In this document: one piece after another, positions 22-46,686 of the stretch
Layout of the letters: every line of letters begins with the position of its first letter
Numbering within the stretch: position 1 is the stretch's first letter
From: an uncultured Methylomirabilota bacterium
GTDB taxonomy: Bacteria; Methylomirabilota; Methylomirabilia; Methylomirabilales; 2-02-FULL-66-22
Direction of reading: 5' to 3'
NCBI GenBank assembly: GCA_963705305.1
Contig: OY970067.1
Coordinates: 224,001 to 288,000, forward strand
DNA: 64,000 nucleotides
Made by a program: the position numbers and the translations under genes
The notes under the pieces: generated by a model
Databases searched by the model: none
What the model was told of the DNA's origin: nothing
The model's input: only the letters and a program-made list of their open reading frames with translations

Positions 22-251
22 GGGCACGCAGCATCGTCTATCAAATGACGGTACTACCTGCCCCGTCATGCCCCGTCAAGGCCGCTTGGACGGTCCGGGC
101 GCCCTCCACCGGACGATGCTACCGGGGCTAGAGCGGCGCGCCATCCTTCAGGATGGCACGGACCGCACGGATCTCGTAGTCCGCCTCGCGGTGCCGTCGC
201 GTCCATCCCCTGCCGCCGGCGCGCCAGGAGTGTCCGGGTGCAACGCCCTCC
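22..251 (+). mobile_element. RAYT/Y1-transposase-derived non-autonomous element, copy A
   Basis: ATG at 68 reads MPRQGRLDGPGALHRTMLPGLERRAILQDGTDRTDLVVRLA, resembling RAYT N-termini (MPRxxRLDxPGxxHHVxxRGxERxxIFxDxxDR). Ends GGGCACGCAGCATCGTCTATCA and GTGCAACGCCCTCC match the TIR consensus of the other copies. Confidence 0.75.
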
Positions 252-315
252 ATTTCCGGTCGAGTGACCTGCCCCCTCGAAAATGGGGGGCGGTTTTCGA
301 CTCGCCCCTCCTCCT

Positions 316-1509
316 CTACTTATAGTGGATTGAGCCGACGGTGTGCTTGGCGATGTAATCCCAGTTATAGGAGACTCCCAGACCGGGCCCCTGGGGAATC
401 GGAACGCAACCCGCTGCATCGATCCCGTCGAAATCCCCGTCCGCGTAGCCGTCCGTGTACAGGCCCTCGGTGTAAAAGGGATGCGAATGCCGGTCGATCT
501 TCGGATGGACCAGCCCCCATTCGTAGTAGTTGGAATTGCGGATTGCCGCGAGGCAATGGCGGGTCGGGGGATCCCCCAGATGAATCTCCACATCGATGCC
601 GAGGCTCTCGGCGGCGTGGGCGAGTTTCATCGTCCCGGTGATCCCGTCCAGCCTCACATCGCCCCGCACGAAATCCGTCGCCTCGGCGAGGAGGACGTTC
701 ATCCGTTGTTCTACGCCGCGGACATGCTCTCCCTGGAGGAGGGGGGTCTTGATCATCTGGCGCAATCTCCGGTGCGCGAAGTTGGATTGCCCCATGTCCT
801 GGAAGGGATCTTCCAGCCAGAAGAACCCCTCCTCGTCGCAGGCCCGCCCGACCTTCAGGGCCTCCCCGAAGGTCGCATAGGCATTGGCCGGATCGAGCAT
901 CAGGTCCATCCGGCCCCCCACGCGCTTCCCGACCGCGTGGATCAGCGCGACCTCGCGGGCAATCGGGCCCTGCCACCACGGATGAATCTTGAACCCGCGG
1001 TAGCCCTTCTCGAGGCAGACCTGGGCGAAATCGGCAAAGGCCTCTGGAGAATCCAGGCCGCCGCGCTCATCGCCGAAAGCCGTGCTCGCATACACGGGGA
1101 GCTTCTGTCGGAACCCCCCCAGCAGCTCGTAGATCGGCGCGCCATAGTACTTTCCCGCGATGTCCCAGAGCGCGATATCCACCGGCGCACTGCCCATGCG
1201 TCCGAGATGCCTGAGGATCCGGTTGACCTCGTTGTAGATCTTCTCCCGCTCTAGCGCGTTCTGACCAATGACAATTGACGCAATCCCCGCCATGGCGGCT
1301 GGCTCGATGACGGTGAAGGTCGATACGTATTCTCCCGTGATGCCGGCGTCTGTATGGATCTTGATGGCGTGCGACTTCCGACGAGTCACGGTGCCGGGCT
1401 CGTACACTTCTCGGGTCTCCAGCGTGCCAAAGTCTCGTCTCTCGCGCTCAAACTCGCAGAGTTCGATCCCGGTGATCTTGAGGTTTCTCTGGGCTGTCGC
1501 GTCTGTCAT
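316..1509 (-). CDS. Mandelate racemase/muconate lactonizing enzyme family (enolase superfamily)
   Basis: VDIALWDIAGK, GFKIH, LMLD, WLEDP and GE motifs; GGAAGGAG RBS upstream of MTDATAQ. Confidence 0.9.
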   Translation of the reverse strand: MTDATAQRNLKITGIELCEFERERRDFGTLETREVYEPGTVTRRKSHAIKIHTDAGITGEYVSTFTVIEPAAMAGIASIVIGQNALEREKIYNEVNRILRHLGRMGSAPVDIALWDIAGKYYGAPIYELLGGFRQKLPVYASTAFGDERGGLDSPEAFADFAQVCLEKGYRGFKIHPWWQGPIAREVALIHAVGKRVGGRMDLMLDPANAYATFGEALKVGRACDEEGFFWLEDPFQDMGQSNFAHRRLRQMIKTPLLQGEHVRGVEQRMNVLLAEATDFVRGDVRLDGITGTMKLAHAAESLGIDVEIHLGDPPTRHCLAAIRNSNYYEWGLVHPKIDRHSHPFYTEGLYTDGYADGDFDGIDAAGCVPIPQGPGLGVSYNWDYIAKHTVGSIHYK

Positions 1510-1743
1510 CCAAGTGCTCCTTCCGCCATGAACCGCGGGGCTCGAAAGTGGTTCGTCGGGGGGCCCGACCGGTTGCCCGTCGGCACGCGGCGAGACCGGC
1601 TCCGCCATTCGGAGGGTGCCGCGCCCGCCCTGCCGGGTGACTCAAAGAGGGTGGCAGTTCCAGGAGAATTGGCAAGCCCTGTGGGGCCGTGCACCGCGCA
1701 CAGCTCACGTCATCCTACGAGGCGTTCCCTGGACGCGAGCGAG

Positions 1744-1772
1744 AGCATAGCCCGCACCCGGTGCGAGTGCAA
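1744..1772 (-). promoter_or_regulatory. Putative sigma70 promoter of the enolase-family gene
   Basis: TTGCAC-17 nt-TATGCT on the minus strand. Confidence 0.35.
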
Positions 1773-1779
1773 GCAATAC

Positions 1780-2020
1780 GGCGCGTTGGATTAATTGTCA
1801 TATCTTGCCGCCGCCCGCCTCGCCAGGCTTCGGTACGCGGAATGCGGCGGCCTGCGAGGCATCCGTACCGTGATTGTGCCAGGGCTGGAGTGCTGGATCA
1901 TCTTCCGAGACGATCGGGGCCGCGCGGAATTCGGTTTCTGGCGGCTTGGCAAGGCCTTGCTTCGCTGTTGCTGAGGACACTGTCGCTGAGGATACTTGAC
2001 AAATAAAGAGAACGTCTCTC
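1780..2020 (+). mobile_element. RAYT-derived element, copy B
   Basis: Left end GGCGCGTTGGATTAATTGTCA, right end TTGACAAATAAAGAGAACGTCTCTC; internal frame reads GGLRGIRTVIVPGLECWIIFRDDRGRAEF. Confidence 0.7.
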
Positions 2021-2021
2021 A

Positions 2022-2420
2022 TCACATCCGCGGCAGGGGCTTCACATCGGCGTCGGCACCCGCCGACCGCTCAACCGGATACCCGCATCGCACCCATGCC
2101 TCCATGCCGCCTTCGAGGTTGTAGACCCGCTCGCCGCCGAGCAAGGCGAGAACCTCGGCGCCGAGGGCGCTGATTGCTCCAATGCGGCAGACCACCACGA
2201 TGTCGCGCTCGAGGGCGAGCTCGGCGTGGTGCTTGAAGAGCTCGTCTACCGGAAGGTTCCGGGCCCCGGCGATATGCCCCTGGGCGTACTCCCCCGGCAG
2301 GCGCACATCCACCACCTGGGCCCCGCCCGTCTCGATGAGGGGTCGGGCGTCCGAAACCTCGATCCGGCTGAAGGGCTCCTCGGGGTCAGCCTCCCCCCCT
2401 CCCAGGGGACCGGTCCTCAT
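2022..2420 (-). CDS. Rhodanese-like domain protein
   Basis: VVDVRLPGEYAQGHIAGARNLP, VVVCRIG active-site loop, NLEGGMEAW. Confidence 0.85.
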   Translation of the reverse strand: MRTGPLGGGEADPEEPFSRIEVSDARPLIETGGAQVVDVRLPGEYAQGHIAGARNLPVDELFKHHAELALERDIVVVCRIGAISALGAEVLALLGGERVYNLEGGMEAWVRCGYPVERSAGADADVKPLPRM

Positions 2421-2449
2421 GACTCCCGCGTCCTTCTTTCTCCCCTTTC

Positions 2450-2510
2450 GCCCGGACTTCGTTTCCCGGCGGCTTGCCAGAAACTCGCTTTGGTGCCGCT
2501 GAAGATATGA
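2450..2510 (+). repeat. Partial copy of the RAYT-derived element between rhodanese and DsbA
   Basis: CGGACTTCGTTTCCCGGCGGCTTGCC matches CGGACTTCATTTCCTGGCGGCTTGCC of copy F (~8010-8036). Confidence 0.55.
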
Positions 2511-2520
2511 TTTTGCTAGA

Positions 2521-3180
2521 TCAGCCCTTCCGCGCTGAGGCATCCAGCATCGCCTGGAGCAGCGTTTCCGGCGGCTGCGCTCCGGACACCGCGGCGCGGC
2601 GATTGAAGATGAAGCAGGGCACCGCGTTGATGCCGGCCTGCCGGGCTTCGAGGTCGACTCGCAACACGTCCTCCCGGCCGTCCTCGGACGCCAGGTAGGA
2701 GGCCAAAGCGGCGCGATCCAGGCCGGCACGCTCGCCGACGCTCGCCAGCGCCGCCTGGTCGGTGAGGTCGGCGCCATCCAGGAAATAGGCGCGGAAGAGC
2801 CGCTCCGCGACCGCGTCTTCATGCCCCTGCGTCGCACCGTAGAGCATGAGCCGGTGCGCGTTCAGCGTGTTCGGCTGCACCGTGATGCGGTCGAAGGCGA
2901 AGTCGATACCGACTTCCCGGCCCACGCCCGCCACGCGCGCGTAGCTGTGGGCGTGGCCGGGGCCGAACTTGCGCTCGAGGTAGTCCTGGCGCGGCATGCC
3001 CGCGTCCGGCAGGTCCGGGTTGAGCTGGAACGGCAGCCAGCGCACGGCCGGCTTTCCCCCATCGGGCACGCGCTCCTGGTATAGCCGCAGTGCGGCTTCC
3101 AGGCGCCGCTTGCCGATGAAGCACCAGGGTCAGACGATGTCCGAGACGATTTCGATGGTAAGCGTGGGTTGAGCTTGCAT
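2521..3180 (-). CDS. DsbA/FrnE-family oxidoreductase with in-frame UGA, probable selenoprotein (UPWC)
   Basis: MQAQPTLTIEIVSDIV-TGA(3130-3132)-PWCFIGKRRLEAAL continues in frame into PFQLNP, PNTLNAHRL and GINAVPCF. The TGA occupies the first Cys of the CPWC motif. Confidence 0.85.
3092..3109 (-). promoter_or_regulatory. Candidate bacterial SECIS hairpin
   Basis: GCGGC-GCCUGGAA-GCCGC stem-loop starting 20 nt 3' of the UGA, with a G-initiated loop. Confidence 0.45.
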
Positions 3181-3322
3181 GCGCCGGTCCTTTCTGCTGG
3201 GAGTGGCCCCGATGTGTCCTGGCGCGGCGTGCGGGGTGCCGGACGGGGCCATTATACCGTCGGAAGGGGCCTTTGTGGATCTCTTCATGGCCGCGAGCGT
3301 TCTTGCTCGTAATGGACGCAAT

Positions 3323-3515
3323 GGGGGACGTTGCCAATTTCGTCAACTCGCGACGGCAACGGTCACGCCCACTCACCGCGCCTCTATCTTTCAGGGACAC
3401 CGGCCTCTACGAACCCAACAGCCCCCTGGGATCCCGTGATCCGCCGGGGGCTGTTGGGTTCGCACGCCAGGAGCTTTCCGGTCGGCATCTTCGCCTCCCT
3501 CAGGCCACCTAGCTG
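3323..3515. repeat. Type II element: GGGGGACGTTGCC end, hairpin and conserved core (copy 1)
   Basis: Homologous to 8956-9146; 17-bp perfect stem CGAACCCAACAGCCCCC/GGGGGCTGTTGGGTTCG; 43-nt core identical between copies. Confidence 0.8.
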
Positions 3516-3606
3516 AGAGCGAATTGATTGCGACATGACGCTACCGCCTGTCGGAGGGCGAAGTCAAGATGGAAATGCGGGGGCCAGAAATCGGCTTTCA
3601 GAAATA

Positions 3607-3832
3607 CGGGACGCCGCATTCCCTCCCAGACTTTGCCAACGTCCGCCTCGCGAGGTTCCCGCAAGCAGAACTCGATGGCCTGCGAGCCCTCCACAAAGTG
3701 ATGGTGCCAGGCCTGGAGTTTCGGATCATTTTCTGGGAGGACACGGACCGTGCAGATTTCGTTCTCCGCCGGCAAGCCGGGACCCCGCGCTGGTACCGAT
3801 GGAAAGATTCGACGGAGAATGCTACGTCTCCT
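3607..3832 (+). mobile_element. RAYT-derived element, copy C
   Basis: Internal frame LDGLRALHKVMVPGLEFRIIFWEDTDRADFVLR; ends CGGGACGCCGCATT and GACGGAGAATGCTACGTCTCC; near-identical to copy D over its 3' part. Confidence 0.8.
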
Positions 3833-3847
3833 CTTTCGGCGATACGC

Positions 3848-3890
3848 GGGGAGGTCGTTAGCAATTAGGACAATTAGGCCACAACGTCCC
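3848..3890. repeat. 43-bp mini inverted element, copy 1
   Basis: GGGGAGGTCGT...CAATTAGGACAATTAGGCC...ACAACGTCCC; repeated at 6334-6377. Confidence 0.7.
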
Positions 3891-3903
3891 TTTTACGCGG
3901 TTC

Positions 3904-4069
3904 ACAATTCCGGCGTACGAGAACGCGTGAGGACCCGCCCCGGGCCGGGAGGCGCGGCTGACTCTGCATGGGGTGGCCCCGGACCCCACGCCCGCAGGCT
4001 CCTCTGCCGCCGGGGCGCCCGGAGTGCCGGGAGGCTGCCTCCCTCCGAGAAGTTGTTTCAGAACCTACG
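3904..4069. repeat. Direct repeat upstream of the MFS gene (long form)
   Basis: ACAATTCCGGCGTACGAGAA...TTCAGAACCTACG, also at 5396-5479. This copy has 82 extra nt bounded by GCCGGGAGGC at 3944-3953 and 4026-4035. Confidence 0.8.
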
Positions 4070-4070
4070 T

Positions 4071-4124
4071 CCCGTATTACGTTGGTCTCGTCGGGAGGAT
4101 TTGACAGATAATGCAACGTCCCCC
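4071..4124 (+). repeat. Isolated right end of the RAYT-derived element
   Basis: TTGACAGATAATGCAACGTCCCCC at 4101-4124, the best match to the TIR consensus. Confidence 0.7.
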
Positions 4125-4210
4125 ATTACTGAGGCCGAGGGACGATGCGCCGCCCGCCGATCCGACCTCGCCTGCGGCCGCCACCGGCGGGATCCCCGGG
4201 ACCGGCCGGC

Positions 4211-5422
4211 ATGCGTGAAGCGCCCGCCTTCCCGGGGCCGGCCCGATCCCGGGCGGTCGTGGTGACCGCCCTGGGGACGGCCCAGACCTTGGCCTGGGCG
4301 TCAAGCTACTACCTGCCGGCGATCCTCGCCCATCCGATTGCCGCGGGGCTGGGCGTCCCGCACGCGTGGGTCTTCGCGGCCTTCTCGGCCGCCCTGCTCA
4401 TCGCCGCCCTTGCCGGCCCCGTCGTGGGGCGAGGGATCGATCGCCACGGGGGGCGGGGCGTGCTCGTCCTCTCGAACCTGGTGTTCGCCGGCGGACTGCT
4501 CGCGCTCGCCGCGGCCACGGGCCCCCTCAGTCTCTTCGGGGCCTGGGCGGTGCTCGGCGTCGGGATGGCGCTGGGGCTGTACGACGCCGCGTTTGCCACG
4601 CTGACAAACCTCTACGGCCGCGCGGCCCGCGGCCCAATTACCGGCATCACCCTCTTCGCCGGTTTCGCGTCGACGGTGAGCTGGCCGGTGTCCTCGCTCC
4701 TGATTGATATGCTGGGGTGGCGCGAGACCTGCCTCGTCTGGGCCGCCCTCAACCTGGGAATCTGCCTTCCGCTCAATCGCTTCCTCGTGCCGCTCGCCAC
4801 GGAGCAGGCGCCTCCGCGCCGCGTGCCGGGAGCCCGGGTGGGGTGGAAGCCGCGCAGGGAGATGTTCCTGCTCGCCTTCGTGTTCGGGGCCGCCTGGTTC
4901 GTCACCGGCTCGATGGCGGCCCACCTGCCGCGCCTCCTCGAACGGGCGGGGGCGACGCCCCTCCGGGCGGTCGCCATTGCCGCGCTGGTCGGGCCGGCCC
5001 AGGTCGCCGCGCGGCTGGCCGAGTTCTTCCTTTTGAAACGGACACACCCGGTGGTCTCGGCGAGGATCGCGACGACGCTCCACCCCATCGGCGCGGTCGC
5101 CCTGGCCTGTTGTCCGGGCCCCCTGGGGACAGTGAGCTTTACTGTCCTGTACGGGGCCGGGAATGGCCTGCTAACGATCGCTCGGGGCACGGTCCCGCTC
5201 GCCATCTTCGGTCCTCACGGCTATGGCGAGCGCACCGGCCTCCTCGGCGCCCCCGCCCGCGCCGCCCAGGCGTGCGCCCCGCTGGTGTTCGGGCTCTTGT
5301 TTGACGCCATGGGGCTTGCAGTCATCCTGGTCTCGGCGGGATTGAGCCTGGCCGCGCTGGGCGCCCTGCTGTGTCTGCGCGCAACCCCGGATCGGACAAT
5401 TCCGGCGTACGAGAATGCGTGA
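4211..5422 (+). CDS. MFS transporter
   Basis: About 12 hydrophobic segments; QTLAWASSYYLPA, GRGIDRHGGR, ITGITLFAGFAST. Confidence 0.9.
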   Translation: MREAPAFPGPARSRAVVVTALGTAQTLAWASSYYLPAILAHPIAAGLGVPHAWVFAAFSAALLIAALAGPVVGRGIDRHGGRGVLVLSNLVFAGGLLALAAATGPLSLFGAWAVLGVGMALGLYDAAFATLTNLYGRAARGPITGITLFAGFASTVSWPVSSLLIDMLGWRETCLVWAALNLGICLPLNRFLVPLATEQAPPRRVPGARVGWKPRREMFLLAFVFGAAWFVTGSMAAHLPRLLERAGATPLRAVAIAALVGPAQVAARLAEFFLLKRTHPVVSARIATTLHPIGAVALACCPGPLGTVSFTVLYGAGNGLLTIARGTVPLAIFGPHGYGERTGLLGAPARAAQACAPLVFGLLFDAMGLAVILVSAGLSLAALGALLCLRATPDRTIPAYENA

Positions 5423-5479
5423 GGGCCCGCCCCGGGCCGGGAGGCTGCCTCCCCTCGAGAAGCTGCTTCAGAACCTACG
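5396..5479. repeat. Direct repeat overlapping the MFS 3' end (short form)
   Basis: Matches 3904-3953 joined to 4036-4069; supplies the last codons and stop of the MFS gene. Confidence 0.8.
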
Positions 5480-5603
5480 GCCTTATTCGATGGCTCAAGA
5501 CTTCCCGCAACCGCAGAGCGACCGGAGTCGGCCTGGCGAATTCCCCGGCCGCATCTGCTATACTCCCGGCAAATCTGCGGCCCATTCCTACTGGAGGGCG
5601 CCC

Positions 5604-6098
5604 ATGGACGAACCGGTATTCATCGAGTCACGGGACGAGATGGAGCAGATCCTGCGGGAGGAGGTGCTGGGTCACCTGGGCCTCGCGGGCGACGGGCAGC
5701 CGTACGTGGTGCCCGTCAATTACGCCTACCTGGCCGGGAGGATCCTGTTCCACTGCGCGCTCGCGGGCCAGAAGCTCGACGCCATCCGCCGCAATCCCCA
5801 CGTCTGTTTTACCGTCAGCCGGCAGCGGGGGGAGATGCGGGACCACACCGGCGCCCCCTGCCACATCGACAGCGACAGCGTGATCTGCTACGGCCGGGCG
5901 AGGCTCCTCGAGGACCTCACGGAGCGGGCCGCCGCGCTGAACGCCTTCAACCGCCGCTACCGGCCCGATGCGCCCGATCTCCCGGTGGATCGGGTGGCGC
6001 AGTGCATGGCAGTCGAGATCACGATTGCCGTGATGACCGGGCGGCGGGAGCGAGACCGCCACCGCACGTACTGGCGCGCCATCTTCCATCCGCAATAG
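5604..6098 (+). CDS. Pyridoxamine 5'-phosphate oxidase-like flavin-binding protein (NimA family)
   Basis: GHLGL, PYVVPVNY, FHCALAGQKLDAIRRNPHVCF, SVICYG, MTGR. Confidence 0.85.
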   Translation: MDEPVFIESRDEMEQILREEVLGHLGLAGDGQPYVVPVNYAYLAGRILFHCALAGQKLDAIRRNPHVCFTVSRQRGEMRDHTGAPCHIDSDSVICYGRARLLEDLTERAAALNAFNRRYRPDAPDLPVDRVAQCMAVEITIAVMTGRRERDRHRTYWRAIFHPQ

Positions 6099-6319
6099 GG
6101 GCCGCTGCATTATCTGTCCTGCCGGCGCCCGTCCCGCCAGCCCGCGCCAGGCGCAACTCGACGGCCTGCGAGCTCTCCACAACGTGATGGTGCCAGGCCT
6201 GGAGTTTCGGACCATTTTCTGGGAGGACACGGACCGTGCAGATTTCGTTCTCCGCCGGCAAGCCGGGACCCCGCGCTGGTGCCGATGGAAAGATTCGACG
6301 GAGAATGCTACGTCTCCCC
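6097..6319 (+). mobile_element. RAYT-derived element, copy D
   Basis: Left end AGGGGCCGCTGCATTATCTGTC overlaps the upstream gene's TAG; internal LDGLRALHNVMVPGLEFRTIFWEDTDRADF; right end GAGAATGCTACGTCTCCCC. Confidence 0.8.
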
Positions 6320-6333
6320 TTTCGGCGACACGC

Positions 6334-6377
6334 GGGGAGGTCGTCAGTGATTAGGACAATTAGGCCACAACGTCCCC
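6334..6377. repeat. Mini inverted element, copy 2
   Basis: GGGGAGGTCGT...ATTAGGACAATTAGGCCACAACGTCCCC. Confidence 0.7.
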
Positions 6378-6664
6378 TTTTCATGAGATTCGGTGACGGA
6401 CAAGGGCAATTCGGCTAGCAGTCTGTCGAAGTCACCCAAATACCTCTCGAAGAGATCGATAAAGAATCCGACGTAGGCAGCTATATTATCCGGCCAATCG
6501 AGATGCGCACGATGAGACTGCACCTCACCTTGGAGTCCCTTGAGGGTCTCGATGCACTTGGCAGTTTCAGCCCGCCAATCTCGGATGTGCGCAAGGATCG
6601 TGTCCATGGAGACACCGGTGTAATCAGTCATCCCAGCCATGAGAGAACGCTCTCTGACAGTCAT
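6344..6664 (-). pseudogene. Hypothetical helical protein, apparently 3'-truncated where it runs into the mini element
   Basis: Protein-like sequence (MTDYTGVSMDTILAHIRDW...LLAELPLSVTESH) reads directly into GGGGACGTT; visibly lower GC than the backbone. Confidence 0.5.
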
Positions 6665-6784
6665 TGGCCGTCAATCCTCCGCCCCAACTCCACGAAAAAT
6701 AATCCTTTGCGTGGCAAGCTGCACGTAGAACAGCACCCCGACCGGTGCCGGGTGGAGTCGAGCATACCAATAAAGCAGTGCTGA

Positions 6785-7007
6785 GGGAGGCCGCACTATT
6801 TGTAATATGCCGCCGCCGCCCGCCTACCAGGCTCTTCTAGACAGGACTTGATGGCACGTAATGCCTCCACTCCGTGATGGCGTCAGGACTGGATCCGCGG
6901 ATCGTTTGCCAAAGGGCACAGGCCGCGCGGATTTCGTTCCCTAGCGACCTGCCGGGATCCCACTTCGGTGCTGTTGGAAAGATTCCACAGATAATGCTAT
7001 TTCCCCC
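6785..7007 (+). mobile_element. RAYT-derived element, copy E (more degenerate)
   Basis: Left end GGGAGGCCGCACTATTTGTAA; internal CTCCACTCCGTGATGGCGTCAGGACTGGA...GGCCGCGCGGATTTCG; right end ACAGATAATGCTATTTCCCCC. Confidence 0.7.
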
Positions 7008-7031
7008 ATTACAGGAATCAACCCATTATCT

Positions 7032-7865
7032 TCAGGCAATTCGTGCTAAAGCCTTTGCTGCGATCGCCTTATAGGCGAGCGCCTCCATGAGACTGTCCTC
7101 GGTGCCAAAGAGGGTATATGCGTCAATGTTCATGAGCGAAAGTCTCTCAAGGAAGGGACCGCGCTGACTTCTTGGGAGCCGATATTTCACAAGAACATCC
7201 TGATGGGCATCGGCTTTTTGAAACACTTCCTCGTGACTAGCGTAACTGCACCAACTATTCCGGATGACCCTGCAAATCGTGTACTCGCTCTGCTGCCGGA
7301 AATGCAGGGGAGTAGTTACGATATTGGGCCCCAGCCCCATAATATGTGGCTCATTCTCATCCCATATCTTCGCTTCCCCCGTATATTCCTGAAAGTAATA
7401 GACGGCGACTTCCTCATCAGGATCTTCGTGGGTCCTCTTTGCACATGCTGCCGATCGGAAAGCAAAGAAAGCAGCGACATATGGAGACTCCGACCAGTCG
7501 AGAAGCGGAGACGGGAATCCGTGATGTCTTAGGTAGACCATGAATTCGTATCCAAAAGGTGCCTGGTAAGGTTCCGGCCCCTCCTCTGGGTATGCGCCGA
7601 TGTCCCAGCGTTTCTCCGTCACAGACTCGACGGGTTTCTGGAGAAAGTTGCGGAGCACCCTCCAGCATTCCTTCGTCGTATACGGGTGGTCCGTATACCT
7701 CTCTAGCGTCGTTTTTAGCGGCCAGGAGGCCTTCTCTTGCCCCCGAAATAGAGGCGGGGGGATATAGAGACCCGGAGCCTTCTTGCATGTCTCCGAATAC
7801 CGACGCAAAACCTCACCGACCGCGCGCCCAAAGTCCTCCCAACTCGAAAGCACTAATTCTTTCAT
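7032..7865 (-). CDS. FRG domain protein
   Basis: LFRGQ, RHHGFPSPLLDWSESPYVAAFFA, QQSEYT, NIDAYTLF. Confidence 0.9.
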   Translation of the reverse strand: MKELVLSSWEDFGRAVGEVLRRYSETCKKAPGLYIPPPLFRGQEKASWPLKTTLERYTDHPYTTKECWRVLRNFLQKPVESVTEKRWDIGAYPEEGPEPYQAPFGYEFMVYLRHHGFPSPLLDWSESPYVAAFFAFRSAACAKRTHEDPDEEVAVYYFQEYTGEAKIWDENEPHIMGLGPNIVTTPLHFRQQSEYTICRVIRNSWCSYASHEEVFQKADAHQDVLVKYRLPRSQRGPFLERLSLMNIDAYTLFGTEDSLMEALAYKAIAAKALARIA

Positions 7866-7881
7866 TGAATTTTCCTATGGT

Positions 7882-8089
7882 GAGAGACGTCGCATTACTT
7901 GTCATATTTTGTCGGATCCACCAAGCGGATGGATGGCCAGCTAGCCCTCTACGGCGTGATGGTGCCAGGACTGGAGTTTCGGATCATTTCCTGGGAGAAC
8001 ACGGGCCGCGCGGACTTCATTTCCTGGCGGCTTGCCGGGACCACGCCCTGGTGTCGATGGAAAGATTCGACAAACAATGCAACTTCCCC
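7882..8089 (+). mobile_element. RAYT-derived element, copy F
   Basis: Left end GAGAGACGTCGCATTACTTGTCA; internal MDGQLALYGVMVPGLEFRIISWENTGRADFISWRL; right end GACAAACAATGCAACTTCCCC. Confidence 0.8.
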
Positions 8090-8118
8090 TGTCATTCACC
8101 CGATCGGATCGTTCCTAG

Positions 8119-8817
8119 TCAATGAATCCAGGCCACCCGGAATGGTTTCTGCCAGTCGTACTGAACTACCGGAACCACCCGAGAGAGACCAGCAGCTTCA
8201 ATAAGAAGTTTGTAGTCCTTCAAAAGGCGCTCCAAAAGATCGAGACACGCGTCAAGATCTCCGTAGGTCGGCAAGTGCCGCATTGGGTGCATACTGCGGT
8301 GCGCCACATGCCTGTTCACAAAGCGTCGCAGCTTTCTTTCTGCCGCAAGGAGTTCGCGCTCGTGTTTGCGAACTACAGCAGGATTGATTTGGTCCGTACC
8401 CCTTTTTGCATAGTGCTCAAAGGATCGATTCCCCAACGTCCGCATCCGTCCCGAGCGATAGAGGCCAACATAGCGGCGCCGGCTAATTACCTCGGGATGG
8501 TCTCTGACGTCCTGGATTAGCCTGAGTAGTGAAATTGAGCGGCTGTCTTTGTCCGTCTGTCGCCTGATGGCGACCGCCATGTCAGCCACGTACGCGCGGT
8601 TCATCCAACTGTAGAAGACGCTGGGCACCTGAAGTTCGGGATTGGAGGCAATCATTGCCTGGACTTCCCGGTACACGTGGCGGTCGAGCGCCATCTCGAC
8701 AATCTCGTCATAGATGCACCGAAGCCAGCGCTTCCAGCGCAGATATACGCTGCGCCGTCTGGATGCAGACGTGATCGCCTGAGGCTTCGGGGGGGCCTTT
8801 TTCCTCTTCCTGCTCAT
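8119..8817 (-). CDS. Hypothetical protein, HEPN/AbiU2-like
   Basis: Helical protein with IRRQTDKDSRSISLLRLI and a C-terminal RRFVNRHVAH resembling the HEPN R-x4-6-H region. Confidence 0.6.
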   Translation of the reverse strand: MSRKRKKAPPKPQAITSASRRRSVYLRWKRWLRCIYDEIVEMALDRHVYREVQAMIASNPELQVPSVFYSWMNRAYVADMAVAIRRQTDKDSRSISLLRLIQDVRDHPEVISRRRYVGLYRSGRMRTLGNRSFEHYAKRGTDQINPAVVRKHERELLAAERKLRRFVNRHVAHRSMHPMRHLPTYGDLDACLDLLERLLKDYKLLIEAAGLSRVVPVVQYDWQKPFRVAWIH

Positions 8818-8955
8818 GCTGACCTCGTCTGGCTGCGGCGGACCCGAACGATTAGATCAGAACTCCTTTGGGCGACCGGTGGCCGTTCGATTTGACCGTC
8901 CGCTGGCGTATGGCACCCACTACCTAGCCCTTGTTTAAGGGGACGCGTATTTGAT

Positions 8956-9146
8956 GGGGGACGTTGCCACTTTCGTCACGTTGCCGCAAGCATCATGCAT
9001 CGCTGGGCGCGTGCCATCCTCCCAGGTTCCCGTTCCTACAAAAACACAACAACCCCATAGGATCCCAAGATCCGCCGGGGACTGTCGGGTTCGCACGCCA
9101 GGAGCTTTCCGGTCGGCATCTTCGCCTCCTTCAGGCCGCCTAGCTG
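8956..9146. repeat. Type II element (copy 2)
   Basis: GGGGGACGTTGCCACTTTCGTCA ... GGGTTCGCACGCCAGGAGCTTTCCGGTCGGCATCTTCGCCTCC ... CCTAGCTG; homologous to 3323-3515. Confidence 0.8.
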
Positions 9147-9209
9147 GTGTCTGAATTCATTCGGGCAAGACGCTACCTCTCACCGGAGGGGGAAGGCAAG
9201 GGAAAAATA

Positions 9210-9383
9210 CAGAGGACGGGGGACCGGAGACGGGAGACAGAGGTCAGGAGTCAGAGGTCGGGGGTCGGGGGTCAGCCAAGGAATGACTACGGACCACGGA
9301 CCTGGGACAGGGGACCGAGGACCGGAGACGAGGGAGGGGAGACGGCCAGAGGATGACCACAGACTACTGACTACTGACCACGG
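9210..9383. repeat. Degenerate heptamer tandem-repeat tract
   Basis: CAGAGGA CGGGGGA CCGGAGA CGGGAGA CAGAGGT CAGGAGT CAGAGGT CGGGGGT...; later GACTACT GACTACT GACCACG. Confidence 0.7.
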
Positions 9384-9562
9384 GCCAGAGAGGGGAAAGG
9401 GCCTCCAGCCAGGAGAGGGACCAAACAGGGGGACGTACGCAATTTATTCAACTTACGTGGAGGCTACCATGAAAATCCATCATGGCATGTTCGATTTTCA
9501 TGGTACGTTTCGATCAATCCCCCGGTTGTTGACGACAGGCCGAATTGGGTGGATTCCAGCGC

Positions 9563-9799
9563 CTAGGCCGCATCCAGGGTGTAAACGGGCACCTCCGCGA
9601 CACGGCTGGGGGTCGGCTCGGACGCCAGCAGGGCCTCAATGCGCTTCACCGTCTCTGCCGAGAACGTCTCCTCCCCGCACTGCCTGCACACTAGCGCCGG
9701 CACCTGCTCAATCGAGACGAGCTTTCCGTGAACGTCGGCGGTGAAGGTCACCCGCCTGGAATCCTCGGTTCCTCCGCATACCGGACACCTACTATCCAT
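9563..9799 (-). CDS. YgiT-type zinc finger protein (MqsA-like antitoxin domain)
   Basis: CPVCGG ... IEQVPALVCRQCGEETFSAET. Confidence 0.85.
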   Translation of the reverse strand: MDSRCPVCGGTEDSRRVTFTADVHGKLVSIEQVPALVCRQCGEETFSAETVKRIEALLASEPTPSRVAEVPVYTLDAA

Positions 9800-10130
9800 T
9801 ATCAATCCTCCGGCTCCGCCAGTTCGACCACTCATGCGGATCGGGCTCGTAGACTGTTACAATCCGCGTCCGGGCGAGCGCAATCTGGATGTGGAGCGGC
9901 CGGCCCGTTTCAGTAAAACCCAACAACAAGAGGCTTGGACCGTACTTATCTTGGAGGTACTCCTCGACAACTTCCGCATTGGCAATCGCCTGCTCGATTT
10001 CGTCCGTCCGGATTCCCTGCCGAAGCATGCGACCTACCGCATGCCGAGAGATCTCGTAGCGGCCCGAGCGGAAAGCAGCGCGAATCGCCTCCAGCTGTTC
10101 CCGGCTTTCGTCAGGCACAATTGGAATCAT
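9792..10130 (-). CDS. DUF4258 domain protein (putative toxin partner of YgiT)
   Basis: SRHAVGRMLRQGI, EEYLQDKYGPSLLLLG, RPLHI, IVTVYEPD; overlaps the YgiT start. Confidence 0.8.
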   Translation of the reverse strand: MIPIVPDESREQLEAIRAAFRSGRYEISRHAVGRMLRQGIRTDEIEQAIANAEVVEEYLQDKYGPSLLLLGFTETGRPLHIQIALARTRIVTVYEPDPHEWSNWRSRRIDNG

Positions 10131-10204: not shown

Positions 10205-11728
10205 CTACAGCCGGGAGAGGGCGTGGGATTCCAGGTCGACGCGGATGTACCTGGCCAGCAGGGGCTGGACGCGCTCCAGCTCACGGAAGACGTCCTGGGC
10301 GATCTGCCGGTACGAGGGGTGGCCCTGCTTGCCCGAGCGCAGCTCGACGAAGTGGTAGATCTCGCGCAGGTTCCAGGTGAACAGGACCCGCTTCCGGAAG
10401 GCCAGGGGCAGGACGTACTGGGCCTCGCGCGGGAAGCCGGACGCGATCGTCCGGTAGGCCGACTCGGCGCGCGCCATGCACTCGTCGTAGGGGGCCGTGA
10501 GGCCGTAGCGGGCGATCTCGGGCGGCGTGCTGTAGCCGTGCAGGTCGGTGGACTCCTGCGGGATCTGGGTGGCCATGCGGTGCCGCTGGATGTCCCGGAA
10601 GGCTCCGAAGTCCACCAGGATGTCGAAGGTGTAGGTGAGGTGCTCCAGCGCCCGCAGGGGCGCGTCGTGCGGCCCCCGCCGCGCCAGGTACTCCTCGACG
10701 ACCTTCTCCCGCGCCTCCCCGCCCATCGCCGCCGCCCGCGCCTGCACCTGGCGGAAGGGAAGATGGCCGTAGCCGTACAGGATCGCGGCCGCGAGCTGCA
10801 CCTCGGCGTCCTCGGGATACCGGACCAGCGACACGGCCGGCGCCTCCGCGGGGGCGGTCCCCGCGAGCTCCGCGGCGGCCAAGCGTTCCATCGCCTCCGC
10901 CGTCTCGGCCAGGTAGGAACTCTTGTCGGCGTACTTGATCAGGGTGGGAATGACCTGCTGCGCCTCGGTCTTCAGCCGGGCGCCTACCTCCTGCGCCTCG
11001 GCCAGGGGGTGGGAGAGGAGCTTCACGATCAGGTGCTCGAGGAGGCGCCCGTTGATCGTCATCCCGATGTTGGTCAGGGTGGCCGCGGGCAGGACGTAGC
11101 GCAGGATGTCGCAGCTCTTGGCCCGGCAGGCCGCCTCGTGGGCCCGCTCGCTCTGCCCCGCCTCGCGCGGCACCTCCGCCTTGACGGCGGCCGTCACCTG
11201 CTCGATGAGCCGCGTGTAGGTCTCCAGCAGGAAGGCGCAGGTCTCCCGGAAGAGGGCGCCGTGCCTGGACGCGGTCAGGCGCGGCTCGCGGTAGAACTTG
11301 CCCCGATCGAAGACGACGTAGCGGGTGGATTTTTCGGTGTACGAGGCGAGGCGCGTGTCCTCGATGATCTTGCTGGCTACGATGGAGACGTCCTCGACGG
11401 CCAGGTGGGCCACGGCGTGTTCCGCCACCGAGGCGTGGCCGTAGCCGACGACCCACTTCTCGTGGAACTCCTTGGCCTTCTGCCGGGCCCGGGCCAGCTC
11501 GTCCTGCCCTGTGGCGGCCCAGGTCAGCCGCTCCGCCAGGTCGAGGTCCCGGTCCTGGATCAGCTTCAGGAGATTCCGCCGCAGGCTCTCCCGGCTGCGG
11601 CTGTAATAGGCGAACAGGACGGCCACCACCTCTTCCGGGAGATTCTTCAGGGCGAAGATGGGCCGCTCTACATTTGTCACGTAGGGACGGAGGATCGCCG
11701 TCTCTTCCGGCGTGAAGACCTCGCTCAT
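10205..11728 (-). CDS. thyX: FAD-dependent thymidylate synthase, two-domain form
   Basis: YGHASVAEHA, EKSTRY, DIQRHR, NLREIYHFVELRS. Confidence 0.85.
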   Translation of the reverse strand: MSEVFTPEETAILRPYVTNVERPIFALKNLPEEVVAVLFAYYSRSRESLRRNLLKLIQDRDLDLAERLTWAATGQDELARARQKAKEFHEKWVVGYGHASVAEHAVAHLAVEDVSIVASKIIEDTRLASYTEKSTRYVVFDRGKFYREPRLTASRHGALFRETCAFLLETYTRLIEQVTAAVKAEVPREAGQSERAHEAACRAKSCDILRYVLPAATLTNIGMTINGRLLEHLIVKLLSHPLAEAQEVGARLKTEAQQVIPTLIKYADKSSYLAETAEAMERLAAAELAGTAPAEAPAVSLVRYPEDAEVQLAAAILYGYGHLPFRQVQARAAAMGGEAREKVVEEYLARRGPHDAPLRALEHLTYTFDILVDFGAFRDIQRHRMATQIPQESTDLHGYSTPPEIARYGLTAPYDECMARAESAYRTIASGFPREAQYVLPLAFRKRVLFTWNLREIYHFVELRSGKQGHPSYRQIAQDVFRELERVQPLLARYIRVDLESHALSRL

Positions 11729-12889: not shown

Positions 12890-13172
12890 GCGGGGCGAGG
12901 GGGCGCTGGGGAGCTCCGGAATTCGAAATTGGAGAACACGTATCTCACGCAAAGCACGCAAAGGTCGCAAAGAAAAGCCGAATAGGAAGGTGGATTACAG
13001 GACCACTGACCAGTGACTACTGACCCCCGCCTACTGCATACTGGAAATGGCGATCTTTGCGTGAGATCAGGCTCGGATTTTTCCTCACGCCAAGACGCAA
13101 AGGGCGCAAAGTAGAAAAGGGGCAAATGGAGGGAAACGGGGAAACGAGTCAATTCGAAGTTCGAAATTGAAA
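12890..13172. repeat. Composite intergenic repeat, copy 1
   Basis: Blocks TTCGAAATT, CACGCAAAG x3, GACCACTGACCAGTGACTACTGAC and GCGATCTTTGCGTGAGATCAGGCTCGG; shared with 17049-17278, 27278-27504 and 35560-35740. Confidence 0.8.
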
Positions 13173-16986: not shown

Positions 16987-17048
16987 CGGACTCCTCTCAG
17001 GCGGGCGGCATAATACGCAATTTCGGCAGAGGCCGCAAGGCCCATCGA

Positions 17049-17278
17049 CATTTCCAGTATGCAGTAGGCAGGGGTCAGTGGTCAGTGGTCCTGTATTCCA
17101 CCTTCCTATTCGGCTTTCCTTTGCGACCTTTGCGCCTTGGCGTGAGGAGGAATCCGAGCCTGATCTCACGCAAAGATCGCCAAGACAAGCACTTCAATTT
17201 CGAAATTCGAACTTCGAAATTCGAATTGTTCCATCTCCCCTGCTCCCCCTCGCCCGCTCTCCCCCTCTCTCCCTCTCT
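17049..17278. repeat. Composite intergenic repeat, copy 2 (inverted, blocks rearranged)
   Basis: 17049-17130 is the reverse complement of ~12960-13049. Confidence 0.8.
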
Positions 17279-26354: not shown

Positions 26355-27274
26355 GCTTGCCCTTCGGCGGCCTGGTCACGTTCGTCCAGGTCCCCCGCTA
26401 CGATCCGGGCGAAGCCCCCGCCCCCCAGGCGGCGGTCCTGGGGATTCCCACCGACGAGGCCACCACGCAGCACCCGGGCGCGCGCTACGGCCCTCGGGCC
26501 ATCCGGGACGCCTCCACCCAGTTTCCCTACTTCAAGCGGGGAGGCGGATACTTCGATCCCGAGCGGAGCCGTCCCATGCTCGCCGACCTCACGCTGCGCG
26601 ATGCCGGGGACGTGGAGATCGTTCCCACCCTCCCCCGCGAGAACGGCGCGCGGATCGCCGAAGCGGCCGCCGCGCTGCTGGGCCGCGAGATCTTCCCCAT
26701 CTGTCTGGGCGGCGATCACAGCGTCACCCCGCACATCCTGACCGCCTTCGCGCTCATCCCCGTGCACCTGATCCAGATCGACGCCCACATGGACTTCGTG
26801 GACCGGCTGGGCGGGGCTTCGGCCACGCACGCCAGCCCCATGCGCCGCGCCCGCGAGCTGCCCCAGGTGCGCAGCCTGACCCAGATCGGCATCCGCAGCA
26901 TCGTGTCCGGGGCCGAGGATTACGACGCCGCCCGGGCGGCCGGGAATCGCATCATCACCTCGGCCCGGGTCCTGGAGGGACGGGAGGGGGACTGGTGCGC
27001 CGACCTGGAGGGGGACGCCTACCTCACCATCGATATCGACGCCTTCGATCCCGCCGCCGCCCCGGGGACCGGTTTTGCCGAGCCGGGGGGCTTGCAGTTT
27101 CGCGACGTCGTCCGTCTGGTGCGGACGCTCGCGTCCCGGCTCCGTCTCCGGGGCATGGATCTGGTCGAGGTCAACCCCTACCTGGATCCCAGCCGGCGCA
27201 CCGCCGTTCTGGCTGCCCGCACGATTCTCGAAGTGCTGAGCGGGGTCTTCGATCCGCCGATCCCCCCTGCCTGA
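26351..27274 (+). CDS. Agmatinase/ureohydrolase family protein
   Basis: GARYGPRAIR, GGDHS, DAHMD, TIDIDAFDP, PGTG, EVNP. Confidence 0.9.
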   Translation: MSLPFGGLVTFVQVPRYDPGEAPAPQAAVLGIPTDEATTQHPGARYGPRAIRDASTQFPYFKRGGGYFDPERSRPMLADLTLRDAGDVEIVPTLPRENGARIAEAAAALLGREIFPICLGGDHSVTPHILTAFALIPVHLIQIDAHMDFVDRLGGASATHASPMRRARELPQVRSLTQIGIRSIVSGAEDYDAARAAGNRIITSARVLEGREGDWCADLEGDAYLTIDIDAFDPAAAPGTGFAEPGGLQFRDVVRLVRTLASRLRLRGMDLVEVNPYLDPSRRTAVLAARTILEVLSGVFDPPIPPA

Positions 27275-27277
27275 CGC

Positions 27278-27504
27278 GAGGGCGCTGGGGAGCGGGGGCG
27301 AGGGGGCGCACCGCTTCGCTCGGGCGCAGAGGCGCTGGGGAGCTCCGGAATTCAAAATTGGAGAACACGTATCTCACGCAAAGCACGCAAAGGTCGCAAA
27401 GAGAAGCTGAACAGGAAGGTGGATTACAGAACCACTGACTACTGACCCCTGCCTACTGGAAATGGCGATCTTTGCGTGAGATCAGGCTCGGTTTCTTCCT
27501 CACG
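27278..27504. repeat. Composite intergenic repeat, copy 3
   Basis: 27331-27504 is nearly colinear with 12902-13089. Confidence 0.8.
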
Positions 27505-29381: not shown

Positions 29382-29527
29382 CAGGCTGCTGAAAAAGGCC
29401 CATCTGCGGCGTTGACGCGCTCCCGCGACGCTGCGACGTACGCGTAAGTACGCCTCGCGTCTGCACCCATCCTCACGGATAGGTACCCGGCGCGTCGCCT
29501 TGCATCTGGACCTTTTTGAGCAGCCTG
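29382..29527. mobile_element. MITE-like element, copy 1
   Basis: TIRs CAGGCTGCTGAAAAAGGCCCATCTGC and GCATCTGGACCTTTTTGAGCAGCCTG; homologue at 33166-33332. Confidence 0.75.
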
Positions 29528-29555
29528 GGGGGAAAGCGGGTTTCTCGGCATCCTA

Positions 29556-33066: not shown

Positions 33067-33165
33067 GCCCGGGCGGCGCCCAGCAGGCTGTCCGCCCCCC
33101 CGGTCTTGCCGTGATCTCTCGGGTTCCCGCCCGTCTAGCAAGATGTTGAAATACCCGTCTTCGCC

Positions 33166-33332
33166 CAGGCTGCTCAAAAAGGCCCAGATGCAAGGCGGCG
33201 TCACCCATCCCTCGGGATGGGTACCCGGCGTGGTGCGAGGCGTACTTAGCTCGTACGCCGCAACGCCACGCGAGCGCGGGGGTACCCGTCTGAAGGATGG
33301 GTCTCGGCAGATGGGCCTTCATCAGTAGCCTG
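33166..33332. mobile_element. MITE-like element, copy 2 (opposite orientation)
   Basis: CAGGCTGCTCAAAAAGGCCCAGATGC ... GCAGATGGGCCTTCATCAGTAGCCTG. Confidence 0.75.
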
Positions 33333-35559: not shown

Positions 35560-35740
35560 TGTGTTTCTCTTGGTGCCCTTTGCGTCCTCGTGTGAGGAAT
35601 GGCCCGAGCCTAATCTCACGCAAAGATCGCCAAGACAGGCCTTCTCCAATTTCGAAATTCGAATTGTTCCTCCGCCCCTGCGCCCGAGCGAAGCGGTGCG
35701 CCCCTACTCTCCCGCTCCCCCGCTCCCCTGCTTCTCTGTG
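35560..35740. repeat. Composite intergenic repeat, copy 4
   Basis: CCGAGCCTAATCTCACGCAAAGATCGCCAAGAC and TTTCGAAATTCGAATTG shared with copy 2; CTGCGCCCGAGCGAAGCGGTGCGCCCC shared (inverted) with copy 3. Confidence 0.75.
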
Positions 35741-46084: not shown

Positions 46085-46567
46085 ATGGTACGCGACGAAG
46101 CACGCTGGGCAAGCGGACACTTCGGGCGAATGCTGCCGGTGCGCCTCCGGACCGGCACGGATCTCACCAATGGACTCAAGAAGGTCTGCGATGAGGCCGG
46201 CCTCCGGTACGGGGCGGTGCTCATCGGCATCGGCAGCCTTCGGCGGCTCAGCTACCAGGTCCTGACCCCCAAGCCGGACACGAAGCTCGGCGCCGGCTAT
46301 ACGGACCCGACCCTGGTCCCCGGGCCGGTGGAAATCCTCAGTCTCCAGGGGGTGATCTTCCAGTCGGAGGAGGGCGAGACGCTGCTCCACCTCCACGGAA
46401 CCTTCTCAGACAAGACCGGGAAGGTGTACGCCGGACACGTGGTGGCGGGCGAGAATCCCGTCCTGGCCACGTTGGATGGGGTGATCGCGGAGGCGGCCGG
46501 CGTCCGGATGGTTCGCAGGATGGACGAGGAGGTGGGGCTGGGCCTGTGCACCCCGGAGGCCGCCTAG
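46085..46567 (+). CDS. PPC/DUF296 domain protein
   Basis: GIGSL, EILSLQG, HLHGTF, AGH; AGGAGG RBS. Confidence 0.85.
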   Translation: MVRDEARWASGHFGRMLPVRLRTGTDLTNGLKKVCDEAGLRYGAVLIGIGSLRRLSYQVLTPKPDTKLGAGYTDPTLVPGPVEILSLQGVIFQSEEGETLLHLHGTFSDKTGKVYAGHVVAGENPVLATLDGVIAEAAGVRMVRRMDEEVGLGLCTPEAA

Positions 46568-46619
46568 CAGCTGGGCCCTTTTGAGCAGCCTGCCGCAACG
46601 TGAGTTTTTCAGGAGCCTG
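46567..46619. repeat. Remnant ends of the MITE-like family
   Basis: GCAGCTGGGCCCTTTTGAGCAGCCTG and TTTTTCAGGAGCCTG. Confidence 0.55.
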
Positions 46620-46686
46620 CTAGGGCTTGACGGGCGGGCGTCGCGGGCCCTGTGACCCGGTGCCGGGGAATGGCGGGGAGGAAGAC

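Follow-up and report, generated by a model that had tools for sequence, protein, structure and literature searches.

Relic TIRtron mini-elements alternate with unrelated genes beside thyX in a Methylomirabilota genome: an island possibly assembled at transposon ends

TIRYTs, transposases akin to the repetitive extragenic palindrome (REP)-associated tyrosine transposases (RAYTs), and the TIRtrons that they form with terminal inverted repeats (TIRs), were described in 2013 by Di Nocera, De Gregorio and Rocco (PMC3733652). Transposases of this kind with a helix-turn-helix (HTH) tail make up subclass 2.1 of TnpA-Y1 (Quentin et al. 2018, PMC6006769), which Laurenceau et al. equate with RAYT group 1 (bioRxiv 10.1101/2020.03.09.984088); the properties of that group were given by Bertels et al. 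2017 (PMC5581495). Here we analyse an island of TIRtron ends and unrelated genes in a window of 64,000 nt, bases 224,001-288,000 of the single 5.65-Mb contig of an uncultured Methylomirabilota bacterium (OY970067.1); coordinates are window positions unless marked as genome. A preliminary description of this DNA had proposed an integron-like array in which six repeats serve as attC-like handles. We put it at about an even chance that TIRYT enzymes built the island by joining foreign DNA at their ends, with an outcome like IS26 units and not like an integron.

In the accessible parts of the published accounts, TIRYTs have a Y1/HUH core with a Y---NP motif and a Bac_DnaA_C-like tail, TIRs start with GGGG, and several enzymes occur per genome, each with its own repeat, whose ends are solo, paired or grouped. 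All of this recurs here. The same accounts, as far as available, do not mention a lineage of internally deleted mini-elements or arrays in which ends alternate with cargo, and they do not analyse junctions. One association with cargo is in print: in marine picocyanobacteria, procA lanthipeptide genes are linked to TnpA-REP of subclass 2.1 (bioRxiv 10.1101/2020.03.09.984088). There, as here, transposase genes, full-length and truncated, are interspersed with genes that face them tail to tail, and mobilization by the transposase was proposed; a later note by the authors states that causality was not established. The procA system differs in having one cargo family and no inverted repeats that were found, whereas our locus has unrelated cargo and explicit ends. 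Apart from that preprint, the literature searched, from which subscription journals were largely missing, yielded no paper on TIRYT-built cassette arrays or on junction specificity.

The parent of the six repeats is present as two identical 1,079-bp elements (genome 480,998-482,076 and 502,028-503,106), ~250 kb from the locus, each with a 334-aa open reading frame (ORF) between inverted ends that match at 21/22 positions. The left and right parts of the mini-copies are found at its two termini, and the intact cognate Y1 enzyme in trans that had been postulated exists. The protein has a Y1_Tnp core (PF01797, 28.3 bits, cut-off 23), whose HuH and Y---NP residues (H60, H62, Y119, N123 and P124) are invariant in 50 homologs. 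Its match to NF047646 (59 bits) lies below the cut-off of 80, as does that of residues 259-311 to PF08299 (Bac_DnaA_C, E 0.011) below its own cut-off; this tail was matched at E<=0.05 in 42/50 aligned members. A PDB sequence search found no match, and the predicted fold (pLDDT 81) was closest to TnpA-REP (4ER8, E 1.5e-6), with a weak match to the DNA-binding domain of DnaA (3PVP, E 8e-3). Terminal inverted repeats flank the gene in place of the GTAG-footed palindromic REPs, in high copy, of a REPtron. The core of the ends, GGGGACGT, agrees with the published GGGG[AT][CG]A[CG] at the first six positions and differs at the last two; that consensus is present in the majority of published TIRs, as far as the accounts give them, and some TIRs depart from it (PMC3733652, PMC6006769). 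By its sequence, then, the parent classifies as a TIRYT/TIRtron, a RAYT-like Y1 transposase with a predicted DnaA-like tail between TIRs, and length, motifs, tail and TIRs together suggest subclass 2.1. At least 7,337 of 8,000 candidates scored were relatives of the protein at E<=1e-40.

Near-full-length transposase genes of this kind number 13 in the genome. Their inner end signatures differ from gene to gene, and inverted ends of 17-22/22 were detected automatically for 11 of them; the nearest intact TIRYTs lie ~217 and 250 kb from the locus. By eye, the left end of intact elements (L002 included) overlaps a promoter-like TTGCAT-17-TACCAT, ~9 nt before the start codon, which suggests a putative near-leaderless, self-repressed transposase transcript. 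A one-ended repeat of ~220 bp, opening with the parent's 22-bp end, is found at five sites (genome 3,156,913; 4,911,108; 4,919,454; 356,566; 1,132,984), with 85-99% identity among them.

Copies A to F, all on the forward strand, lie at 22..251 (A), 1779..2020 (B), 3607..3833 (C), 6098..6319 (D), 6784..7006 (E) and 7883..8089 (F). The nhmmer model that detected them, at E 2e-37 to 8e-65, was itself derived from these six copies. They agree in place, orientation and size (207-241 bp) with the preliminary description. B-F are 59-86% identical in pairs and share with a seventh mini-copy (genome 2.411 Mb) one deletion junction, at which parent position ~155 is joined to ~1019; because of this junction we regard B-F and that copy as one lineage of mini-elements. 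B itself joins parent ~1-155 to ~1019-1079 and has an internal insertion of 15 nt. Copy A, 49-59% identical to the others, matches them in the left part only, where ~165 nt correspond to a TIRYT left end with N-terminal codons; it is a decayed mini-element whose right part is unlike B-F, a point on which the preliminary description needs correction. Six of the seven full mini-copies lie the same way round within 8 kb. The earlier statement that the family ends at ~9.5 kb is correct for the window, where 9.5-64 kb contains no copy, and incorrect for the genome, which has the 13 genes, the 2.411-Mb copy and 123 ends counted with our own filter.

These copies have decayed. The frame inside them derives from the N-terminus of the Y1_Tnp protein, as had been recognised (tblastn 59-63% for A, C and D), and shows no protein-level selection, with pN/pS (nonsynonymous over synonymous differences per site) of 0.49-1.14 in 10 pairs, stops in B and E and a frameshift in E. 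Mean identity among the copies is 0.65 in the ends against 0.62-0.75 in the interiors. The imperfect ~22-bp ends of the preliminary description are real, as decayed ends; the perfect end that it quoted occurs in the window only at 4102-4123, and the exact 11-bp core is kept in 0/12 ends of A-F (the right end of F is one mismatch away), with 72 exact occurrences genome-wide, some of them by chance. B-F have both parental ends, a common internal deletion and no coding capacity, as miniature inverted-repeat transposable elements (MITEs) do. MITEs also have intact ends and target-site duplications; B-F have decayed ends and no duplication visible by eye in their flanks. Blastn with copy D found no mini-copy spanning the deletion junction in the 20 other genomes of the genus, several of them incomplete, that serve as relatives throughout. 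By contrast, one of these (G013) has a young mini-element family with perfect ends around diverged interiors. Such young elements, of 273-299 bp, occur in G013 (L033, L114, L115) and in G006 (L116), and one adjoins a DsbA homolog; among the fetched loci and this genome none of their empty sites was found.

Copies C and D form a mosaic, with 24/57 differences in the left part and 6/165 in the remainder (p 2e-11), which points to recombination between them. A trend in age from one end of the array to the other (rho 0.78, p 0.07, n = 6) was set aside; indels distort the scores of A and B. Divergence between copies had been proposed as a record of captures; age, together with recombination among them, accounts for it better. 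As B-F share a deletion, decay is neutral, ends are damaged and attC features are missing, A-F are, on the strength of their sequences, relics, internally deleted and decayed, and not maintained sites; they are probably no longer substrates of a transposase. Ends of other subfamilies stand among them at 3324, 4123, 6377 and 8957; these are intact, younger than A-F, and could be substrates.

Integrons are defined by the IntI integrase, attC sites with inverse core and core motifs and a bottom-strand hairpin, and whole-gene cassettes. Our locus is like them in having accessory, defence and toxin-antitoxin genes between co-oriented repeats, and promoter-like modules that point into cargo. This alternation, the co-orientation, the defence and toxin-antitoxin cargo and the family-2 ends described below would suit a domesticated platform in which A-F are maintained, foldable sites that insert, excise and reorder whole-gene cassettes. 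The copies themselves do not. Core pairs of attC were found in 0/6 copies, and folding of single-stranded DNA (ssDNA) was inconsistent (z -2.39 to +0.53; 10/12 strand tests above -2, two at or below), which does not support A-F as foldable handles; an Rfam scan gave one chance match (E 0.1). Their ends have no perfect core and are no better conserved than the interiors. No linked IntI or other recombinase is present at the locus, and tyrosine recombinase hits are absent between 6 kb and 517 kb of the genome. The sole integron integrase gene, the one TIGR02249 hit over the cut-off, lies 620 kb away in two pieces (genome 853,432-854,377). Joints are not tied to whole ORFs and cut genes inside their reading frames, contrary to the whole-gene cassettes once claimed, and no mini-copy spanned the junction in the genus. 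Nothing here demonstrates a working integron-like system, and we hold such a platform to be very improbable.

Within the window, several genes are cut or trimmed at ends. The pyridoxamine-oxidase-like flavin protein (PNPOx; 5604..6098, forward) has had its final codons replaced, and its stop, a TAG that overlaps D, is provided at D's left end. On the reverse strand, a rhodanese-domain gene (2022..2420) stops 1-2 nt from B, an FRG-domain gene (7032..7865, 53% GC) lies 24-25 nt from E and 16-17 nt from F, and an AbiU2-family HEPN gene (8119..8817, 56% GC) stops 29 nt from F; these tight joints are as had been reported to within 1 nt. The supposed cargo gene at 6344..6664 (reverse strand), a 106-aa ORF with no Pfam match, is a stub: ~96 aa survive from the N-terminus of a GGDEF-domain protein of ~337 aa (69-76% identity), and the break lies 3-6 nt outside the end at 6377. 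Full-length homologs with genomic context were found at distant loci only. In homologs (proteins P0004-P0020) the domain of the stub is fused to GGDEF, to TIR-domain families (PF13676/PF01582) or to deaminase families (PF00383/PF14437), and its sequence could possibly represent a sensor of defence or signalling proteins.

The gaps do not hold one gene each, as had been thought. They contain more than one, and three further kinds of end (3324/8957; 3891/6377; 4075/5485). A 58-bp piece behind C (3834..3891) ends in the motif that marks a different TIRYT subfamily, of which an intact element lies at genome 5.41 Mb; the piece is duplicated behind D (6320..6377), where its end motif is intact. Repeat P (3904..4075) ends in a further end-like motif and recurs in part as P' (5396..5485, 89-96% identical), which contains the stop codon of a major facilitator superfamily (MFS) transporter gene. 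All of these pieces are on the forward strand, as are the partial pieces of A-F: a right half (2449..2527, 78% to F), whose decayed end overlaps the DsbA stop codon, and a right-end piece (4076..4123) with the perfect end mentioned above. A further end-like motif lies on that strand at 9429..9450; all three are close to where the preliminary description had placed them. The island could in principle have been assembled by RecA, from elements that lay beside genes elsewhere and came in as circles or as gene-plus-element DNA to integrate into resident copies. The C/D mosaic, the direct repeats P/P' around the MFS gene, the presence of the 58-bp piece behind C and again behind D, and the co-orientation of all six copies fit this. 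Most copies, however, are just 59-78% identical over ~220 bp, and repeats so diverged and short are poor RecA substrates; joints at the outer edge would still require a transposase, and few free copies exist elsewhere as donors. We find this explanation improbable.

Two features in the window show an end fused to other sequence. These family-2 modules, both on the reverse strand, lie at 3324..3584 (module G, a TIRYT-type end with a perfect core at 3324, fused to promoter-like and leader sequence toward DsbA) and 8938..9210 (module H, with a doubled end scar at 8938 and 8957 and its promoter-like part toward the HEPN gene). This genome has six, each with a single end, the others at genome 222.4, 516.4, 768.8 and 773.9 kb (see also loci L124-L134), and matches occur in 7/20 relatives, several of which have the stretch immediately ahead of a gene and without a recognisable end. 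Read toward the end, the family begins with a conserved TTGACT-18-TAGCGT followed by a leader hairpin, and it resembles a host promoter that an end has captured, a putative portable expression or cis-regulatory leader. Because a promoter scan did not call the motif, it is conservation that points to a promoter. The window modules have no Rfam match.

Ends are clustered in the genome: 51 neighbour pairs lie within 5 kb, against 12.6 expected and a maximum of 24 in 2,000 simulations, under a uniform null although accessory DNA is itself clustered. Co-orientation holds for 34 of these pairs, and 11 pairs consist of both ends of a single element. For 33 of the 123 ends the outer flank has a homolog elsewhere in the genome, and in 13 of the 33 (one a duplicate) this homology stops within -20..+5 nt of the end, compared with 6/119 random intergenic points (p 3e-6) and 9/233 shifted points (p 4e-8). 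We inspected 14 joints, the 12 unique ones and two at -24 and -37. The missing continuation of the sequence turned up within 30 kb in 0/14, and the joints are one-sided. TG or CG terminates 8/14 of them, against 15% of 3,676 control alignment ends (p 4e-4), and 7/9 of those that fall inside a sizeable ORF of our own gene predictions, a subset chosen afterwards. Other causes apply to at least two of these joints, namely a probable insertion sequence (IS) border and a gene end. A capD stub that adjoins one end is 93% identical to a resident copy, and doubled end scars stand beside several ends.

Two further arrays are co-oriented throughout, at genome 4,318,659-4,340,637 (L003; 12/12 ends, four from duplication) and 4,383,165-4,392,700 (L004; 7/7 ends). 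They lie 43 kb apart and face away from each other, and since they thus point opposite ways on one replichore we rejected replichore bias as the source of their co-orientation. In both, ends separate HicA, PemK, Gp49/HTH, DUF433/DUF5615, PIN and nucleotidyltransferase-HEPN modules among polysaccharide genes. A 2,116-bp duplicate in an array diverges exactly 4 nt outside an end, and one of its copies has extra gene-plus-end modules. These arrays are younger and more cassette-like than that of the window, and the spacers before their solo ends are of low complexity and resemble the window's dispersed intergenic repeats.

At the locus itself, the thyX flank was fetched in 10 relatives (5-20 kb each; some contigs end early). 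The cargo genes and A-F are absent from these flanks, where IS, toxin-antitoxin genes or other operons stand instead, and a family-2 module lies beside thyX in three. Close DNA homologs of cargo within the genus exist only for DsbA (5/20 genomes) and PNPOx (3/20; 87-89%), in each case at other loci, 397 kb from thyX for DsbA in G005. Homology of the DsbA region to relatives spans 2526-3309 and has an element end at both limits, the partial copy at 2526 and, just beyond 3309, a doubled end scar. DsbA and PNPOx thus behave as had been anticipated of cargo: relatives have them at other places, and the breakpoints coincide with element ends. The GGDEF stub adds a gene cut at an end. Synonymous distance (pS) for DsbA and PNPOx is about half that of thyX, one core gene, in the same genomes (0.17-0.27 vs 0.42-0.45; in G004 0.36 vs 0.49), and these sequence distances point to transfer of both genes after the species split. 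At class level homologs are rare, with FRG in 4 and HEPN in 1 of 200 other genomes.

We propose a mechanism consistent with these joints. A TIRYT would act in trans, its DnaA-like tail reading the subfamily-specific inner boxes of an end, and would cut ssDNA a few bases outside the end motif and join it to foreign DNA. On the strand from which the end is read as a right end, it would cleave at two places, one close to the end and one distant and variable, with C|A or C|G as its loosely defined dinucleotide. Cleavage of this sort follows the example of TnpA-REP: the E. coli enzyme, in the parts of the reports available, cuts ssDNA loosely at C|T, 5' or 3' of its site and over >400 nt, and catalyses strand transfer, and a Marinomonas enzyme also cuts CA (PMC3333891, PMC8266576). 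Pieces of cargo plus one end would then be joined preferentially beside an existing end. Joining would be blind to reading frames, with selection retaining pieces that hold a whole gene and promoter, and homologous recombination between copies, as in the C/D mosaic, would add shuffling. The outcome would be gene-plus-end modules added or trimmed side by side, and the mechanism predicts one-sided joints, stubs, doubled end scars and co-oriented arrays.

Several results weigh against this mechanism. One-sided joints are equally the product of adjacent deletions. At fixed offsets TG/CG occurs in at most 23% of 100 unique outer flanks, against a background of ~17%, and a replicate of the breakpoint analysis on 55 ends of five relatives gave 3/17 vs 7/63 (p 0.44), with TG/CG at 0/3 of the near-edge alignments; breakpoints there are blurred because the homologs are just 72-83% identical. 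An end-like motif stands upstream of DsbA homologs in 2/5 cases (an independent end ~30 bp closer to the gene in G013, a motif of another type in G014, none in three relatives), around PNPOx homologs in 0/3, and none is clear by eye within 300 nt of FRG and HEPN homologs at five loci. Element-to-element pS, C/D apart, is 0.20-0.45, at least equal to the distance of cargo to its homologs, and for this reason a site duplicated at each capture fits poorly. No activity of any TIRYT is reported in the literature searched, as far as its accessible texts go; the word TIRYT occurs there in just two works. Too shallow to weigh either way, the read data showed no excised circle: short identical low-depth contigs of one run, possibly from the source sample, matched 21% of sampled words, and the listed joints came from two other runs, with low likeness.

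A rival history has no capture: genes would have arrived beside thyX by other routes, mini-elements hopped locally, and deletions initiated at ends trimmed the region until selection stopped them, leaving tight joints and stubs. The region beside thyX is variable among the 10 relatives, A-F decay neutrally, and one-sided joints and truncated genes are expected of adjacent deletion, as described for IS26 in the available text (PMC9602291). Such hotspot debris requires eight unrelated genes to have arrived separately, each losing its native neighbours on both sides, and by itself leaves unexplained the six of seven mini-copies co-oriented in 8 kb, the solo ends that run 12/12 and 7/7 one way, and the capD stub next to an end so similar to a resident copy. 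We consider this history a genuine possibility, short of an even chance. Assembly at TIRYT ends also has a far-reaching form, a widespread HUH gene-acquisition system with cuts at CA/CG, splicing of cargo plus end, polarized arrays of defence, toxin-antitoxin and metabolic genes, and captured promoters as portable modules, in which the window array would be old and those at 4.32-4.39 Mb young; this broader proposal is tentative, and somewhat unlikely as it stands.

The remaining genes show what the island has collected. They comprise, on the reverse strand, a mandelate racemase/muconate lactonizing enzyme of the enolase superfamily (316..1509), with no DNA homolog at E<=1e-15 in the 20 genus genomes, and the DsbA/FrnE-like gene (2521..3180). 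The latter has an in-frame TGA at codon 17, within a *PWC motif, retained in 5/5 copies of relatives; the genome encodes SelA, and the gene is likely to specify a selenoprotein, TGA being read as selenocysteine. The MFS transporter (4211..5422, forward) is ArsK-like below the family cut-off. Six of the eight cargo ORFs are antisense to the elements, as noted before. To the right, on the reverse strand, follow a DUF4258 and zinc-ribbon pair (9563..10130; the zinc-ribbon protein MqsA-like below cut-off), a probable toxin-antitoxin module, and the thyX-like (Thy1) core gene (10205..11728), which is conserved in the genus and anchors the right-hand side. A palindromic ~50-bp repeat at 9459-9513 also stands beside thyX in three relatives (G020, G019, G007). 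Other dispersed intergenic repeat families occur in both orientations at 12893-13111, 17044-17190, 27273-27504, 35569-35734, 29485-29529, 33135-33202 and 46550-46623. The island extends leftward beyond the window, where there are genes of methyltransferase-like and lipocalin-like type, a split MFS gene, a family-2 module, two recent IS copies and a ~200-bp repeat present many times in the genome in near-identical form.

Among better-known systems, the E. coli REPtrons and bacterial interspersed mosaic elements (Ton-Hoang et al., PMC3333891; Corneloup et al. 2021, PMC8266576) provide, besides the closest solved fold, the features to which the joints can be likened in the available reports, namely loose dinucleotide cleavage, variable distance, strand transfer, proposed circle excision and local tandem amplification. 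REPs, though, are described there as hairpins with a GTAG foot, served by an enzyme with no HTH tail, whereas the ends here are mostly non-folding inverted repeats and the units take in kilobase cargo. With the translocatable units and pseudo-compound transposons of IS26, as the accessible text presents them (PMC9602291), the locus shares movement of the element with adjacent DNA, adjacent deletions, preferred incorporation beside a resident copy, and directly oriented copies that alternate with genes. IS26 differs in its DDE transposase and 8-bp target duplications, in contrast to a Y1/HUH enzyme known from sequence alone and copies that are non-coding relics 59-86% alike.

Already in print are the TIRYT family, the grouping of its ends and a single case of association with cargo genes that face the transposase. 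New at this locus are an array of mini-elements from a single lineage, statistics on junctions and a predicted cleavage dinucleotide. The genome provides substrates on which these can be tested: cognate pairs of enzyme and end, and a cleavage site predicted both in its dinucleotide and in its offset, a few bases. Were deletion all that the ends do, the locus would be ordinary mobile-DNA debris. Should they add DNA, cassette-like arrays would have a further origin besides integrons and IS26, through a tyrosine transposase that acts on ssDNA.

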